From contig NZ_CP042905.2 of the NCBI RefSeq assembly GCF_008000775.2, positions 3,570,001 through 3,602,000 on the forward strand: DNA of 32,000 bases. The letters are read 5' to 3'. Positions within the stretch are counted from its first letter, which is position 1. Each line of letters starts with the position of its first letter. Origin of the DNA: Promethearchaeum syntrophicum. GTDB taxonomy: Archaea > Asgardarchaeota > Lokiarchaeia > Sigyniarchaeales > Promethearchaeaceae. This document shows positions 23,988 through 28,062 of this stretch, piece by piece. Below the pieces are notes generated by a model. It was not told where the DNA came from. It ran no database searches and worked only from the letters and a program-made list of their open reading frames with translations. A program made the position numbers and the translations under genes.

Positions 23988-24404
23988 ATGAAATCTTTTC
24001 GCAAAGAATTATGGTTTAATGCTCCAAGTAGAAGAGCGTTCATTAATATTACTCCTCAAATTGAACAATGTCTTAAAGAAAGTGAAATTAAAGAAGGAAT
24101 TGTGCTCGTAAATGCCATGCACATAACTGCATCTGTGTTTATAAATGATGATGAATCGGGATTGCATTATGATTATGAAGTTTGGCTTGAAAAATTAGCC
24201 CCCCACGAACCTGTTTCTTATTACAAGCATAACGTTGGCGAAGATAATGCGGACGCTCATATGAAACGTCAAATTATGGGACGCGAAGTAGTAGTAGCAA
24301 TAACCAATGGAAAATTAGATTTTGGTCCTTGGGAGCAAATTTTTTATGGTGAATTTGATGGAAGAAGAAGGAAAAGAGTTCTGGTCAAAATCATAGGAGA
24401 TTAA
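23988..24404 (+). CDS. YjbQ/UPF0047 family protein (secondary thiamine-phosphate synthase-type)
   Basis: 138 aa. The blocks [39 protein letters not shown]...[44 protein letters not shown] match UPF0047. Confidence 0.85.
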
Positions 24405-24715
24405 CAGCAACTATTATCCCCACAACCAAAGTTGTCTTTCGATTTATTTTTACTGTAGGTCTTAGCATCCCATAAACAACCGCACCCTTTCACTTCTTTC
24501 ATAAATATTGCTTGAACCGGACAATTTCTTTTACACGCACTACATTCCGTACACAAATCGGGATGAGTGATTTCATATTTATCTTTGGAATTTCTTTCTG
24601 GTAAGCCAAATGGGCAAACTTCTTCGCATATACCACAGGAAATGCATAAACTTGCATCTATGTATATCTTTACATCCATATCTATTTTTTTATTCATCAA
24701 ATTTGTAAATTCCAT
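24401..24715 (-). CDS. HgcB-like 2x[4Fe-4S] ferredoxin with a Cys-rich C-terminal tail ending in vicinal Cys-Cys
   Basis: It has two CX2CX2CX3CP motifs ([12 protein letters not shown] and [12 protein letters not shown]), then GCGC directly after the second cluster, then a tail ending ...[13 protein letters not shown] (CC codons at 24404-24409). The size (104 aa), the position immediately 3' of the HgcA-like gene (26-nt gap) and the terminal CC all match HgcB. Confidence 0.75.
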
Positions 24716-24741
24716 TTTCTTCTTTCCTTTTTAATCATGAA

Positions 24742-26394
24742 TTATAAAAAATATAGTCCAACTGATGAGAAAATAATACTTATTATCAATAAAATAACCT
24801 GAATTTTATTAAAGTATGGATATTCATCTCTTATTTCTGTTGGACTTGTGCTAAATGTATATCCACTAAAAGACATTGTTGAGAAGAAAGCTAACCAGAA
24901 ATAAAGAAAAATATTCAGTAACATAAAAAGAATTGAATTGTGGAGAATGTATGTTATGATACTCAATACAATAATATTAATTACTCCAATGGTTGCTCCT
25001 TTCACCATAAATTTCCGCGTAAAATTGAAAATCGGGTAGGGGATACAAATCAATATATTTGTAATGGCAATATATAACCAAAATTCTCCGATAAACCACA
25101 TTTTATCAAACATTTGAAAGAAAATCAACCCTAAACATAACAAAAGTGTTGGTTTTAAGAAAATTTTTCTATAAGAAAATGTTAAATGTGTGATTCCTGC
25201 TAGTATTCTATGAAATAGTGAAAAATTAATTTTTTTCATAGATTTTGGTTTTACTATATACTTTTTTTCAAGATATTCCGGGATATCCTTTGCCCAAATT
25301 GGACCGTAATAAAGTTTAAAAGGGAAATATGGCACATCAGTTATCAGTTGAGGAATCGCAATTCCCCCAGCAGATAATTGTGGGAGGATAATTTTACGCT
25401 GTTGTGTTTTTTCTTCAATATTTGTTGCTTTAATAGCTTCAATTAATTGTTTATTACCAAAGTTATCTCCGCGCGCACCACACCATACATTAATCCCATT
25501 ACTATCAACACATAATACCCAAGCATCAATTTTTTGAATTTTTTTCATAAAGCGAATATAGGTATAATCATAATTAGACGTTACTAATATTGGAGATTTT
25601 GAATTTGGGTTTCCAGATTGATATATTCCTGGTTCAATAGGTACAGGATCCACTTGACCAGTTAAAATACATCGCATGGAGCGAAATATTGCACTTAATC
25701 CAGAAAAAGATTTTTTAGGAGGAGTATAATAACCAGGACCCGAATTTTTCTTTAATTCTTCCTTAACTATTTCCAATACTTTAATGGAACCTTGTTTCCA
25801 ATTTTCTTCATTAATTATTTTATATCCAATAGGACCAAGATATTTTGAAAACCATTTGAGAGGAAGTGTTTTTCCACTTTTTTTTCCAGTTTTTTTTTTA
25901 TAAAACCAGCGTTCTAAGATAAATTTGATTTTTGAAAAGCCTGATGGCACAAATTCTGCAGCTAAATAAAGTCTTCCATTTGGTTTTAATAATTTCCATG
26001 CCTCTCGTAAAAAAATCTGCTGTTCTAAGGGTCGAAGTTCTGAAAGCATGAACGTGCTAACAATCACATCAAATTGTTCTGGTTTGGTGAAATCATCTAT
26101 TATTGAACCTTTAAGAAAGGAAAGTGAATTTTTTATTTCAGATGAGATATTGTTATTTGCCACACGAACCATTTTAGGATTTTTATCAATTCCAAGAACA
26201 AATGCACCTTTCTGAGCTAATTTTCTAGATAATTGACCTGGACCACAACCAACATCCATAACTTTCTCATCTGAGTGAATCCTTTCCACAATCCAATCTT
26301 GCACTTGTAAATTTATTCCTTTCGTGAGTTTAGTAAAATTTACATCATAAATAGTTGGGGTTTCTTCCAACTTTCGCATATATACAACTGCCAA
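24742..26394 (-). CDS. Fusion protein: N-terminal class I SAM-dependent methyltransferase + HgcA-like corrinoid-binding domain + C-terminal multi-TM domain
   Basis: aa ~40-150 are VMDVGCGPGQLSRKLAQKGAFVLGIDKNPKMV...FDVIVSTFMLSEL...LLKPNGRLYL, covering SAM motifs I-III. aa ~250-380 are PGIYQSGNPNSKSPILVTSNYDYTY...IDAWVLCVDSNGINVWCGARGDNFG...RKIILPQLSAGGIA...YGPIWAKDIPEYL. As far as I recall the HgcA sequence, this is colinear with its cytosolic domain (PGLY..G.P..SPVLVTANY....DAWLLV.DT.GINVWCAAGKG.F...R.L.LPQL.A.GV....GPV.A.DLP.FL), including the cobalt-ligand Cys (codon 25480-25482). aa ~390-550 form about 5 TM helices, as in HgcA. The start is TTG at 26394 or ATG at 26379. Confidence 0.75.
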   Translation of the reverse strand: MAVVYMRKLEETPTIYDVNFTKLTKGINLQVQDWIVERIHSDEKVMDVGCGPGQLSRKLAQKGAFVLGIDKNPKMVRVANNNISSEIKNSLSFLKGSIIDDFTKPEQFDVIVSTFMLSELRPLEQQIFLREAWKLLKPNGRLYLAAEFVPSGFSKIKFILERWFYKKKTGKKSGKTLPLKWFSKYLGPIGYKIINEENWKQGSIKVLEIVKEELKKNSGPGYYTPPKKSFSGLSAIFRSMRCILTGQVDPVPIEPGIYQSGNPNSKSPILVTSNYDYTYIRFMKKIQKIDAWVLCVDSNGINVWCGARGDNFGNKQLIEAIKATNIEEKTQQRKIILPQLSAGGIAIPQLITDVPYFPFKLYYGPIWAKDIPEYLEKKYIVKPKSMKKINFSLFHRILAGITHLTFSYRKIFLKPTLLLCLGLIFFQMFDKMWFIGEFWLYIAITNILICIPYPIFNFTRKFMVKGATIGVINIIVLSIITYILHNSILFMLLNIFLYFWLAFFSTMSFSGYTFSTSPTEIRDEYPYFNKIQVILLIISIIFSSVGLYFL

Positions 26395-26441
26395 TTAAGA
26401 TCTCTCTTCTTTTATTTTCTTCTTAATGATAAATATAGTAT

Positions 26442-27530
26442 TTATTCTGATTTCGGTTTCCAAAAACCTTTTTTTCTAAGATATTTTCCCAAATACACTA
26501 ACCCCAGCATTATTGGAACCTCCCAAAATAACCCCATAGTTGTCCCTAATGCAGCAATTGAGCCGACACCATACATTGCTACTGCAGTAGCTATTGCAAT
26601 CTCAAAATGGCTCGAAGATCCAATAATAACTGTAATAATTCCCTCTCGATATTGCATTTTAAATATCCTTGTAATTAATAAGTTAAATCCAACAACAATT
26701 ACAAACCCAAGTAGAAGTGGGATAGAAATTAATAATAATTGGTCGGGATTCGCTAATATTACATTTCCATTTAATGAGAAGAGAACAATTAAAGTTGTTA
26801 ATAATGCAAGAATTGAAATTTTGCCTACAATTGGGCGATATATGTTGTTAAACCAATCTTCTCCTTTCTTTGAAATAAGAATTTTCTTACTAATAACCCC
26901 CAAAATCAGCGGAATGCCAATGAAGACTATTACTGAAATAAACAATAATAATCGATCGATTTGAATATCCTGAATGCCGGTCAATAATGAAACGATAGGA
27001 GCATATAAAATCATAATTGTCACTGTATTAAGGCTTGTATTAACCACATTTTGCTCTTGATTTCCTTCAGCCATATTCCCCCAAACTAACACCATGGCTG
27101 TGCATGGAGAAGAACTTAATAAAATAACCGCTACAACTAATTGTTCATAACCCTGTAAAAAAACGCGAGCTAATAGAGCTCCTACTATAGGAGCCACAAT
27201 CCAATTTGAAAAGAGAGTTAAAATTATAGGTTTTGGATTTTTTTTTAATTTTTTTAATTCTGATGCTTTCAAATTTAACATCGCAGGATACATCATTAAA
27301 AACAAACAGATGCCAATCGGGATTGAAATACCCGATATTTGCCATGAATCGATAGTTTCTCCGATATTTGGGATATATTTTGACAATAAAATGCCAACAA
27401 CCATACACAAAAATACCCATAAAGCTAGGAATTTCTCAAAAAAACTAATTTTTTTTGAGTTCTCAGATTTTGATGTCTTCTCTGAATTTCGAGTAGTATC
27501 ATTTTTCAGCTCAAGATTTTCATTTTCCAT
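26442..27530 (-). CDS. acr3: ACR3-family arsenite efflux permease
   Basis: FFEKFLALWVFLCMVVGILL at the N-terminus, the ACR3 hallmark SSPCTAMVLVW (conserved Cys in TM4), about 10 TM, 362 aa. Confidence 0.9.
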   Translation of the reverse strand: MENENLELKNDTTRNSEKTSKSENSKKISFFEKFLALWVFLCMVVGILLSKYIPNIGETIDSWQISGISIPIGICLFLMMYPAMLNLKASELKKLKKNPKPIILTLFSNWIVAPIVGALLARVFLQGYEQLVVAVILLSSSPCTAMVLVWGNMAEGNQEQNVVNTSLNTVTIMILYAPIVSLLTGIQDIQIDRLLLFISVIVFIGIPLILGVISKKILISKKGEDWFNNIYRPIVGKISILALLTTLIVLFSLNGNVILANPDQLLLISIPLLLGFVIVVGFNLLITRIFKMQYREGIITVIIGSSSHFEIAIATAVAMYGVGSIAALGTTMGLFWEVPIMLGLVYLGKYLRKKGFWKPKSE

Positions 27531-27648
27531 AAGATTTCTCGCCTAATTAATTTTATAATATATTTAATTGCGATAATTTGTATTCATATAAAAAATTTTT
27601 GATTTGAATTCGAAAAATTTTATATGTTTTTAATTAGTTATTTTAATA
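27531..27648. promoter_or_regulatory. Divergent acr3 / arsR intergenic control region with an imperfect inverted repeat (candidate ArsR operator)
   Basis: 118-nt AT-rich spacer between divergently transcribed genes. AAAAATTTTTGA (27591-27602) and TCGAAAAATTTT (27610-27621) form an inverted repeat with one indel around a GAATTC centre. Statistical weight is low in such AT-rich DNA. Confidence 0.25.
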
Positions 27649-28062
27649 ATGACCGACGAGATTAGGAGAAAAAGAATTATCGATACATTATCTGGCTGTG
27701 TTAATTTTGGGGATCCTGTAAAATTTTATAACGATTTGACACAATTAAAAAGTCAATTTTATCAAGATGAAGAGAAAACTACATTATTTAATTATCTGGA
27801 AGCATTTGGAAACAAAGAAAGATTTTTAATTTTAGATATGCTTAAAGAAAAAGATAGATGTGTTTGTGAATTAGAGGCAATTCTTCAAAAAACTCAACCA
27901 GCTGTTTCGCATCATTTGCGAATCCTAGAAAAAAATAATTTAATTCAAGCCAAAAAAGTTGGAAAATTCAGCCATTACTCGCTTGTTCAACCAGAATTTG
28001 AGAAATTCCAGATTATGTGGAAAAAATGGGCGGATAACATAACTAATTGGTTCGGAATTTAA
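27649..28062 (+). CDS. arsR: ArsR/SmtB-family metalloregulatory repressor
   Basis: RFLILDMLKEKDRCVCELEAILQKTQPAVSHHLRILEKNNLIQAKKVGKFSHYSL has the As(III)-type CVC site just ahead of the HTH (Cys codons at 27859-27867) and the SHHL recognition helix. Confidence 0.9.
   Translation: MTDEIRRKRIIDTLSGCVNFGDPVKFYNDLTQLKSQFYQDEEKTTLFNYLEAFGNKERFLILDMLKEKDRCVCELEAILQKTQPAVSHHLRILEKNNLIQAKKVGKFSHYSLVQPEFEKFQIMWKKWADNITNWFGI

Follow-up and report, generated by a model that had tools for sequence, protein, structure and literature searches.

A methyltransferase fused to an HgcA-like corrinoid protein lies in a conserved arsR-acr3 locus of Promethearchaeum syntrophicum and other Asgard archaea

In a 32,000-nucleotide (nt) stretch of the genome of Promethearchaeum syntrophicum MK-D1 (NZ_CP042905.2), referred to here as the window, a gene for a methyltransferase (MTase) fused to a protein resembling the corrinoid protein HgcA lies between the efflux gene acr3 and a gene for an HgcB-like ferredoxin, next to a divergent arsR. 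HgcA and HgcB are reportedly the mercury methylation pair of Parks et al. in 2013. The native role of HgcAB and of HgcAB-like proteins has been debated since that year, and a link to arsenic has so far come from scattered gene neighborhoods and one bacterial regulatory study. Here we describe the four genes, their conservation across related loci, and a possible function of the unit in metalloid methylation.

Three genes follow one another on the minus strand: acr3 (26442-27530; 362 amino acids [aa]), the MTase::hgcA-like fusion (24742-26394; 550 aa from a TTG start), and the hgcB-like gene (24401-24715; 104 aa). The arsR gene (27649-28062; 137 aa) is read from the plus strand, across a 118-nt spacer (27531-27648) that forms a divergent arsR/acr3 control region. 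An earlier reading of this DNA from its letters and open reading frames (ORFs), here called the original prediction, had placed four genes with these identities at these coordinates, and both the ORF list and the hidden Markov model (HMM) scores agree with it. The gaps that it gave, 47 nt between acr3 and the fusion (26395-26441) and 26 nt between the fusion and the hgcB-like gene (24716-24741), and the divergence of the same-strand trio from arsR, match exactly. Because both gaps are short and both carry purine-rich runs resembling Shine-Dalgarno sequences, with no obvious break seen, the trio fits a single operon that would be read as one polycistronic transcript. A scan for sigma-70 promoters and terminators found 23 promoter-like sites where 23.9 were expected and is uninformative for an archaeon.

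The regulator combines a winged helix-turn-helix fold (HTH_5, E = 1.6e-15; HTH_metalloreg NF033788, 74.7 bits versus a cutoff of 55) with a CVC metalloid site in helix alpha3, as expected of a member of the ArsR family. Its cysteines are C17, C71, and C73; the CVC site is C71-V-C73, and the motif "CVCELE" is encoded at 27859-27876. This motif is invariant in 30 of 30 Asgard ArsRs of related loci, and the N-terminal cysteine column of the Asgard ArsRs is 93% conserved. Most of the Asgard ArsRs considered here (30 loci) have an N-terminal CxCxxC besides the CVC, a CadC-like alpha3N pattern that corresponds to aa 15-20 of the window protein. The Promethearchaeum ArsRs keep one of its three cysteines (C17), and the loss of the other two suggests that the metal site of ArsR has shifted in Promethearchaeum.

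An inverted-repeat search of the spacer, which is AT-rich, found an imperfect palindrome, CATATAAAAAATTT..AAAAATTTTATATG, with arms at 27585-27598 and 27613-27626. A TATA-like TTATAAA lies upstream of acr3, also within the divergent spacer. The palindrome (CATATAAAA...TTTTATATG) is nearly unchanged in two loci from Promethearchaeum metagenome-assembled genomes (MAGs; L001 and L006) and is partly kept in a third (L003), and we infer that it is a candidate ArsR operator. The pump itself scores 295.3 bits on TIGR00832, above the equivalog cutoff of 282.8 (E = 6e-88), and matches SBF (E = 1.9e-41). Its motifs include Cys143 in "PCTAMV" and Glu310 in "HFEIAIA," which we take to be functionally important residues.

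The TTG start of the fusion gene at 26394 is probably correct, because the resulting N-terminal "MAVVYM(R/K)KLE" is kept in homologues of ~50% identity; a variant of the motif, "MSYVFMKALE," opens a stand-alone CpaM of the same organism. The N-terminal domain of the fusion (25750-26394; aa 1-215) is a CpaM-type class I S-adenosylmethionine (SAM)-dependent MTase, with a match to Methyltransf_25 at E = 3.5e-17 (aa 45-140; Methyltransf_25/31/11, E ~1e-17) and the SAM motif GCGPG at aa 49-53. On the CpaM model (NF043040), it scores 143.8 bits, below the cutoff of 180, with aa 3-208 aligned onto positions 2-213 of 216. The association of a CpaM-type SAM-MTase with a corrinoid protein is realized here in a single polypeptide. 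We considered an ArsM-like arsenic methyltransferase as the identity of this domain and rejected it: the ArsM-type As(III)-binding cysteines are missing, the sole cysteine of the domain being C50 in the GCG motif, to which the linker adds C242, and the fusion scores 41.2 bits on the ArsM model NF008823 against a cutoff of 263. The fusion of Lokiarchaeum ossiferum and one relative (the P0049/P0029 pair) carry an MTase insertion of ~34 residues (alignment columns ~105-140) that is unique among the fusions.

The middle of the protein (25210-25674; aa ~241-395) is an HgcA-like corrinoid-binding domain. It matches CdhD/PF03599 (E = 5.3e-14; aa 241-342) and the gamma subunit of CFeSP (2h9a; E = 6e-10) and thus has the CFeSP-like corrinoid-binding domain that characterizes HgcA. 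The cap helix reads GINVWCGARG, with Cys305, the presumed cobalt ligand, within NVWC (25480-25491). In an alignment that included four bona fide HgcAs, every true HgcA, HgcAB-like protein, and fusion had "NVWC." Compared with the cap-helix motif N(V/I)WCA(A/G)GK, the window's NVWCGARG fits at N, V, W, C, and position 6 and differs at three of the eight positions, such that the "AAGK" of HgcA is replaced by GARG. The remainder (24742-25209, which includes the stop codon; aa 396-550) is an HgcA-type C-terminal membrane domain with hydropathy segments at aa 410-550 and ~5 transmembrane (TM) helices, as in HgcA.

An AlphaFold2 model of the fusion, built from 21 sequences, is of good confidence (pLDDT, 82.9; pTM, 0.78). 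The MTase domain reaches a pLDDT of ~90, the cap-helix segment alone falls below 50, and long helices are predicted at 388-544. The best fold match of the model in the PDB is 9a0b_A, an integrative model of HgcAB, over 325 aligned columns; the rest of the top matches are SAM-MTases. When the PDB was searched by sequence, CFeSP subunits and generic MTases came up, but no solved HgcA structure.

The ferredoxin scores 56.6 bits on the HgcB model (NF040864), below the cutoff of 99, over positions 9-93 of 93. Its two CX2CX2CX3C [4Fe-4S] motifs (C24/27/30/34 and C55/58/61/65) are invariant in 71 aligned sequences, as is "GCGCL(W/Y)." Beyond the second cluster, it has an HgcB-type cysteine tail, comprising GCGC (C78 and C80), C98, and a terminal CC (C103-C104; 24404-24409), and a C-terminal CC or CxC is present in nearly all of the complete sequences among the 71. 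Both the extra cysteine after cluster 2 and the C-terminal vicinal pair that mark HgcB are therefore present. The ferredoxin is a separate ORF in the window and in all related loci, so the pair lacks the one-polypeptide arrangement of HgcAB-like fusions.

A search of the whole sequence library with the HgcA-like part of the fusion found 963 relatives. The nearest are fusions of ~550 aa, which score at least 250 bits, and they are followed by a gap and then by bona fide HgcAs. The window fusion is 24-30% identical to the bona fide HgcAs, which score 400-430 bits on the HgcA model (NF040863), whereas the fusion scores 169.9 bits against a cutoff of 275, with aa 253-542 aligned onto positions 30-318 of 325. 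Its score on the HgcAB_like model (NF043039) is 176.8 bits against a cutoff of 285. The fusions in general score higher on the HgcAB-like than on the HgcA model, and some distant fusions pass the CpaM cutoff of 180 (192-211 bits). Given this shortfall on the HgcA model and the low identity, the fusion is, as judged from sequence, not a true HgcA and belongs with the system that NCBI names "HgcAB-like / CpaM." All of the fusions that bear a name come from Asgard archaea.

The genome of MK-D1 also encodes a canonical copy of this system elsewhere (L093:3099-4852; Logan assembly DRR199588; protein P0278 = QEE16896.1), in which a stand-alone CpaM (240.8 bits versus the cutoff of 180) overlaps by 4 nt with a fused HgcA-HgcB (HgcAB_like, 372.5 bits versus 285), with no ars genes near. 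The MTase domain of the window fusion is 30% identical to the stand-alone CpaM, and the window proteins are 30-37% identical to their canonical counterparts. The fused HgcAB-like protein of MK-D1 ends right after its second Fe-S cluster, without the HgcB-type cysteine tail, whereas the window HgcB-like protein keeps this tail. The same canonical layout, an MTase followed by HgcA::HgcB, is found in two other lineages (L094 and L095), again with no ars genes. Because the fusion states M|A::B and M::A|B both exist, Rosetta-stone reasoning argues that MTase, corrinoid protein, and ferredoxin act as one unit. Asgard sequences have been placed in the fused-HgcAB clade (PMC10083202). We considered that this placement might have misread MTase fusions and dropped the idea, since genuine fused HgcAB-like proteins are found in MK-D1 and other Promethearchaeota.

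Conservation of the linkage was assessed in 83 loci, comprising 80 from a metagenome scan with the fusion alignment and 3 close Promethearchaeum MAG loci from a genome scan. The genome-contig scan used a single-protein query and also gave two irrelevant bacterial MTases. Of the 66 loci that extend far enough past the fusion, 63 have an hgcB-like gene directly after it. Among the other three, L068 has no hgcB-like match at all; antisense-ORF artefacts arose in other loci. Among the 55 distant loci in which at least 1.2 kb precedes the fusion, 27 have a same-strand acr3 immediately before it, and every ACR3-adjacent locus with at least 2 kb upstream also has ArsR (18/18).

The distribution of these genes follows the phylogeny of the fusions. 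We drew clades from a neighbor-joining tree, since average-linkage clustering on identity failed to separate the clades by context. In a large ars-linked clade (clade A), 32 of 33 informative loci have ACR3 and/or ArsR upstream of the fusion, with ACR3 directly adjacent in 26; in the window's own clade, all four informative loci do so. Neither gene is upstream in the sister clade B (0/16 informative loci) or in five other loci (0/5). The second cultured Asgard archaeon, L. ossiferum, has the order arsR<->acr3-fusion-hgcB, and two MAGs labeled Hodarchaeota have arsR<->[DUF166]-acr3-fusion-hgcB-c3-c4, where c3 and c4 are two conserved genes taken up below. The earlier reading would have been refuted by a lack of the linkage in other genomes; instead, the arsR/acr3 association is kept across Asgard loci at ~50% protein identity. 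The linkage of the fusion/hgcB pair with acr3/arsR is not accidental.

In two loci (L010 and L091), ArsR is directly beside the fusion without ACR3, and in another (L019), an FMN-reductase gene lies in between. Because ArsR adjoins the fusion where ACR3 is missing (L010 and L091), these arrangements suggest that the fusion/ferredoxin pair is itself a target of ArsR regulation. In several clade A loci (L021, L024, L032, and L033), two genes are inserted between acr3 and the fusion (clusters c38/c39; e.g., L032:4514-7686). They encode an ~850-aa protein with many CxxC pairs and an ~200-aa protein; the insert is possibly a mobile element that splits the operon.

Related operons have also recruited further genes. 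A bona fide ArsM (NF008823, 347 bits versus 263) is encoded between acr3 and the fusion in L087 (7079-7960), and a homologue 60% identical to it lies just after hgcB in L025 (8172-9056). Six loci (L013, L022, L039, L051, L066, and L080; cluster c28, e.g., L022:3067-3567) have an ArsC-like gene of the pI258 type, whose product belongs to the thioredoxin-coupled low-molecular-weight phosphatase type and scores 134 bits on TIGR02691, below the cutoff of 174. These six loci are noteworthy beside a cold-seep survey in which Asgard lineages were without arsC1 and arsC2; the same study reported acr3 and arsM in Asgard MAGs (10.1101/2022.11.20.517286). In most clade A loci, hgcB is followed by c3 and c4 (~36 and ~29 loci, respectively; e.g., L087:10023-10412 and L087:10450-10803), neither of which has a Pfam or NCBIfam match. 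The c3 protein carries an N-terminal CCx5-6CC that is similar to the Cys-rich N terminus of ArsM, and c4 ends in ...GC. Genes for DUF166 and for the Cys-rich DUF2769 are frequent neighbors.

Redox-type genes recur as well. In L001, from a close Promethearchaeum MAG, genes for a Cys-rich protein, a thioredoxin-like protein (AhpC/TSA), and a DsbD/CcdA protein lie between acr3 (6407-7492) and the fusion (9755-11410). The same trio lies upstream of distant fusions in L077 and L078, and genes with a DGC domain (PF08859) flank both sides. In L009 (6482-6769) and L072, where ArsR is absent, the gene just upstream of the fusion encodes HgcC, the "HgcAB-associated protein" (NF040962, 98.9 bits versus 70), a small Cys-rich protein of the AbrB type. 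Where they lack ArsR, these Asgard fusions thus share the HgcC partner of true HgcAB. None of these extra genes (arsM, ArsC-like, c3, c4, HgcC, or the trio) is found in the window. The original prediction had also listed arsM, arsC, and arsA as missing from the window. Pfam scans, which covered 29 of its 30 ORFs that reach 100 aa (all but 31364-31993), indeed revealed none of them, and tblastn queries with ArsM and ArsC-like proteins likewise gave no match in the window; arsA was covered by the Pfam scans only.

Several known systems resemble this locus in part. With HgcAB, the window pair shares the PF03599 domain with the NVWC cysteine, the C-terminal domain of ~5 TM helices, and a directly downstream ferredoxin that has cysteines after cluster 2 and a C-terminal CC, and there are further likenesses in the ArsR upstream in some lineages and the HgcC neighbor in some relatives. 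It is unlike HgcAB in the GARG that stands for AAGK, in the SAM-MTase of ~215 aa fused to the N terminus, in the acr3 operon, and in the scores of both proteins below the model cutoffs. The HgcAB-like/CpaM system (NF043039/NF043040; the "fused HgcAB" of PMC4646819) has the same three modules and is the best-scoring family for both halves of the window system. In contrast to the canonical form of that system, the modules are permuted in the window, with the MTase joined to the HgcA-like protein, the ferredoxin separate and provided with a cysteine tail, and ars genes adjacent.

Among arsenic systems, a minimal arsR-acr3 operon has the same ArsR of the CVC type divergent from an ACR3 that passes TIGR00832 and has the conserved Cys and Glu, but the window has two more cistrons after acr3 and no arsC, arsA, or arsD. 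ArsM/AS3MT is likewise a class I SAM-MTase in an ArsR-controlled ars operon beside an As(III) pump, and the outcome proposed here, methylated arsenic, would be the same; unlike in ArsM, the transfer would run via a methyl-corrinoid and not directly from SAM. The original prediction noted that ArsR-type regulators occur next to hgcAB in bacterial methylators, and this has already been published (PMC7438021; 10.1101/2022.10.17.512643). Bacterial hgcAB genes flanked by acr3, arsC, arsM, or arsR are on record (PMC7438021, McDaniel 2020), and a study of Pseudodesulfovibrio mercurii ND132 describes ArsR control and arsenic induction of hgcAB (10.1101/2022.10.17.512643, Gionfriddo 2022). These bacterial loci resemble the window in having a pair from the HgcAB superfamily beside ars genes, but they hold bona fide HgcAB with no fused MTase, and the ars association is looser and patchy, whereas the window locus is archaeal, has members of a distinct subfamily inside the operon itself, and shows an association that is near-universal in one Asgard clade. 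In the searchable literature, we found no description of a CpaM::HgcA-like fusion with a separate HgcB-like protein, nor of near-universal arsR-acr3 embedding in a Lokiarchaeial clade or of two permuted systems in MK-D1; searches for "CpaM" or "corrinoid protein-associated methyltransferase" returned unrelated acronyms only.

We propose, tentatively and at a little less than even chances, that the unit methylates As(III) or Sb(III) through its corrinoid, with SAM as the methyl source and under the control of ArsR, in an operon that also provides efflux by ACR3. The gene identities, the architecture, the conserved residues, and the conservation of the linkage are observed features; regulation by As(III) through ArsR, SAM as the source of the corrinoid methyl group, and As(III) as its acceptor are what we infer from them. 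As(III) or Sb(III) would bind Cys17, Cys71, and Cys73 of ArsR, which would release the palindromic spacer and derepress the genes, and acr3, cpaM::hgcA-like, and hgcB-like would be made as one transcript. The corrinoid in the HgcA-like domain would then be reduced to Co(I) by the HgcB-like ferredoxin and methylated from SAM by the fused CpaM domain, which would yield a methyl-Co(III) ligated by Cys305. From there, the methyl group would pass to a soft metalloid bound by thiols of the HgcB-like cysteine tail (GCGC...CC), most likely As(III) and possibly Sb(III). The methylated product would leave the cell, and ACR3 would export unmodified As(III) in parallel.

The assignment to arsenic is argued from the conserved operon context and from the recruitment of ArsM, ArsC-like, and Cys-rich proteins to the same unit, and the proposed chemistry from analogy with HgcAB and with the SAM-dependent remethylation of cobalamin. 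The latter is exemplified by the reactivation of MetH, in which a low-potential donor and SAM restore methyl-cobalamin. This is a repair reaction and not the main methyl supply of the enzyme, and MetH carries it out with a domain of a type other than the Rossmann class I MTases; it offers a mechanistic analogue only, with no homology.

A number of observations weigh against this proposal. We know of no established precedent for a class I Rossmann MTase that methylates a corrinoid, and ACR3 is known, to our knowledge, as an exporter of As(III) and not of methylated arsenic; arsP is not present. Because CxCxxC accompanies the CVC site in most of the related ArsRs, other soft metals could be their inducers. 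The contrast between clades A and B (Fisher's test, p = 5e-12) comes from loci that are phylogenetically non-independent. Moreover, the fusion and its ferredoxin are equally conserved without ars genes in clade B (0/16) and in Heimdall-group loci (L088 and L089), where the fusions keep the ferredoxin partner, so arsenic cannot be the sole context of the fusion family. The original prediction had read the unit as a corrinoid-dependent analogue of the ArsM pathway. The MTase is of the CpaM type and not ArsM-like, and true arsM genes share the operon in L087 and L025, which makes simple replacement of ArsM by the fusion too narrow a description. In bacteria, deletion of hgcAB in ND132 caused no significant loss of arsenic resistance according to the summary of that study, and in its abstract, the sensitivity of the knockout is described as raised toward As(V), with no such change for As(III) (10.1101/2022.10.17.512643).

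Of the other explanations, the one that survives best is methyl transfer to something other than a metalloid, for example a membrane or small-molecule substrate, by a unit that in one Lokiarchaeial lineage simply ended up beside arsR-acr3 and was retained there, or that is co-induced with them because As(III) damages vicinal thiols or the cofactor. We regard this as unlikely, but it deserves serious weight. It would account for the pair's conservation without ars genes in clade B, in the other Asgard loci (0/5), and in the Heimdall group, for the unrelated neighbors of the canonical CpaM + HgcAB-like systems in MK-D1 and other lineages, and for the ArsM alongside in two operons, and no function has been assigned to the HgcAB-like/CpaM family as a whole. 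Mere co-location fits poorly with a linkage that a clade with proteins diverged to ~50% identity retains in 32 of its 33 informative loci, on the same strand and with gaps of tens of nucleotides. The direct pairing of ArsR with the fusion where ACR3 is missing, the recruitment of further Cys-rich or arsenic genes (c3, ArsC-like, ArsM, and thioredoxin/CcdA) to the same unit, and an HgcB-type cysteine tail that is typical of soft-metal binding all speak against it as well.

Another explanation is a functional mercury methylase, with true HgcAB activity that makes methylmercury (MeHg) from Hg(II) under control of an ArsR-type regulator, as is seen in several bacterial methylators, and with acr3 as an independent pump. 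Residues of established importance in HgcAB (the cap-helix Cys305 in NVWC, the HgcB cysteine of GCGC after the second cluster, and the C-terminal CC) are all kept in the window proteins, and the tail is missing from the canonical fused HgcAB-like protein of MK-D1. HgcC is encoded upstream of the fusion in L009 and L072, the best fold match is 9a0b, and ArsR-regulated hgcAB is documented (10.1101/2022.10.17.512643). We nonetheless consider this explanation improbable. The identity to HgcA and the score on its model are far below those of bona fide HgcAs, the HgcAB-like model scores higher, and AAGK is replaced by GARG in the cap helix. The operon partners (ACR3, ArsM, and ArsC-like) are arsenic-specific, with no mer genes present among them. 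In the "fused HgcAB" family, described by Podar et al. in 2015, one cultured member has been tested, P. furiosus, and it formed no MeHg (PMC4646819; PMC10083202).

The reverse reaction can also be envisaged: the corrinoid might take the methyl group from methylarsenicals, as an O2-independent counterpart of ArsI, and the regenerated As(III) would be exported by ACR3. Methylarsenicals are known to be demethylated anaerobically in sediments and paddy soils, and we know of no enzyme identified for this reaction. A demethylase would also explain why the invariable partner is the As(III) pump ACR3 and not ArsP, and the presence of ArsM in the same operons of L087 and L025 hints at a separate function for the fusion unit. 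This direction seems very improbable to us, since the module that is obligately associated with or fused to the corrinoid protein is a SAM-dependent class I MTase, a methyl donor system, since Cys-on corrinoids of the HgcA type are seen as donating methyl groups to electrophilic metals, and since no methyl acceptor pathway is encoded near. The last explanation, a gamma subunit of acetyl-CoA decarbonylase/synthase serving carbon metabolism, owes its appeal to the nr name of the identical protein P0001 (100% match, Candidatus Prometheoarchaeum syntrophicum; "Acetyl-CoA decarbonylase/synthase complex subunit gamma"), to the PF03599 CdhD match, and to PDB matches to CFeSP gamma at E ~6e-10, but it is effectively refuted by domain and context, and we reject the nr name as a misnomer: the NF003195 match (69.2 bits versus 306) covers only the ~135-residue corrinoid domain, an N-terminal Fe-S domain and a delta-subunit partner are lacking, the HgcA-type 5-TM domain and cap-helix cysteine are present, and there are no Cdh or Acs genes in the window or in any of ~90 related loci, so that the link to the acetyl-CoA pathway that would have spoken against the original prediction was seen at none of these loci.

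To return to SAM-fed methylation of As(III) or Sb(III), a stronger version of the proposal may be formulated, which we hold to be rather unlikely as a whole. In this version, the ars-embedded unit would be a corrinoid-dependent, SAM-fed As(III)/Sb(III) methyltransferase, the first case of enzymatic arsenic methylation independent of ArsM, at work in anaerobic Asgard archaea, and the native, and possibly the ancestral, job of the HgcAB superfamily would be to methylate thiophilic metalloids and not mercury. Should the unit indeed methylate As(III), Sb(III), or Hg(II), a B12-dependent route would be added to the arsenic cycle of anoxic marine sediments, hgcA-like genes in metagenomes would have to be read differently, and the natural fusion would give biochemical access to the partnership of CpaM with a corrinoid protein. 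Should it turn out not to, the operon remains a record of another, permuted way of fusing the CpaM, HgcA, and HgcB modules, the second one known, which is strong evidence for their joint action. The presence of the arrangement in both cultured Asgard archaea, MK-D1 and L. ossiferum, makes the question of As(III), Sb(III), or Hg(II) methylation testable.

A further methyltransferase gene lies 36 nt 3' of arsR, on the plus strand (28099-28758). Its product is a membrane protein of the ICMT/PEMT family (ICMT, E = 1.5e-12; PEMT, E = 1.4e-11) with a weak match to MddA (methanethiol S-methyltransferase; E = 1e-5). The gene is possibly co-transcribed with arsR, and its membership of the module is doubtful; it lies away from arsR in L001 and is missing from L003. 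In L093, a distant PEMT-like gene also lies ~1.6 kb away from the canonical CpaM/HgcAB-like pair. We considered the ICMT/PEMT-like protein as a conserved partner and rejected it, since the two are only 24% identical and neither recurs in other loci; their proximity to the two systems is probably a coincidence.

The other scanned ORFs of the window are housekeeping or non-ars genes, including those for PCNA, primase, GINS, eIF2-alpha, and TFS. At the downstream end of the operon, the hgcB-like gene shares a 4-nt 3' overlap (24401-24404) with a convergent yjbQ/UPF0047 gene on the plus strand (23988-24404), and the same arrangement is found in L001-L003. Farther along, a protein of the Na+/Ca2+ exchanger family, encoded on the minus strand (22784-23854), has 25 acidic residues in unbroken succession (EDEDEDEDEDEDEDDDDDDDDDDDD) within the central loop.

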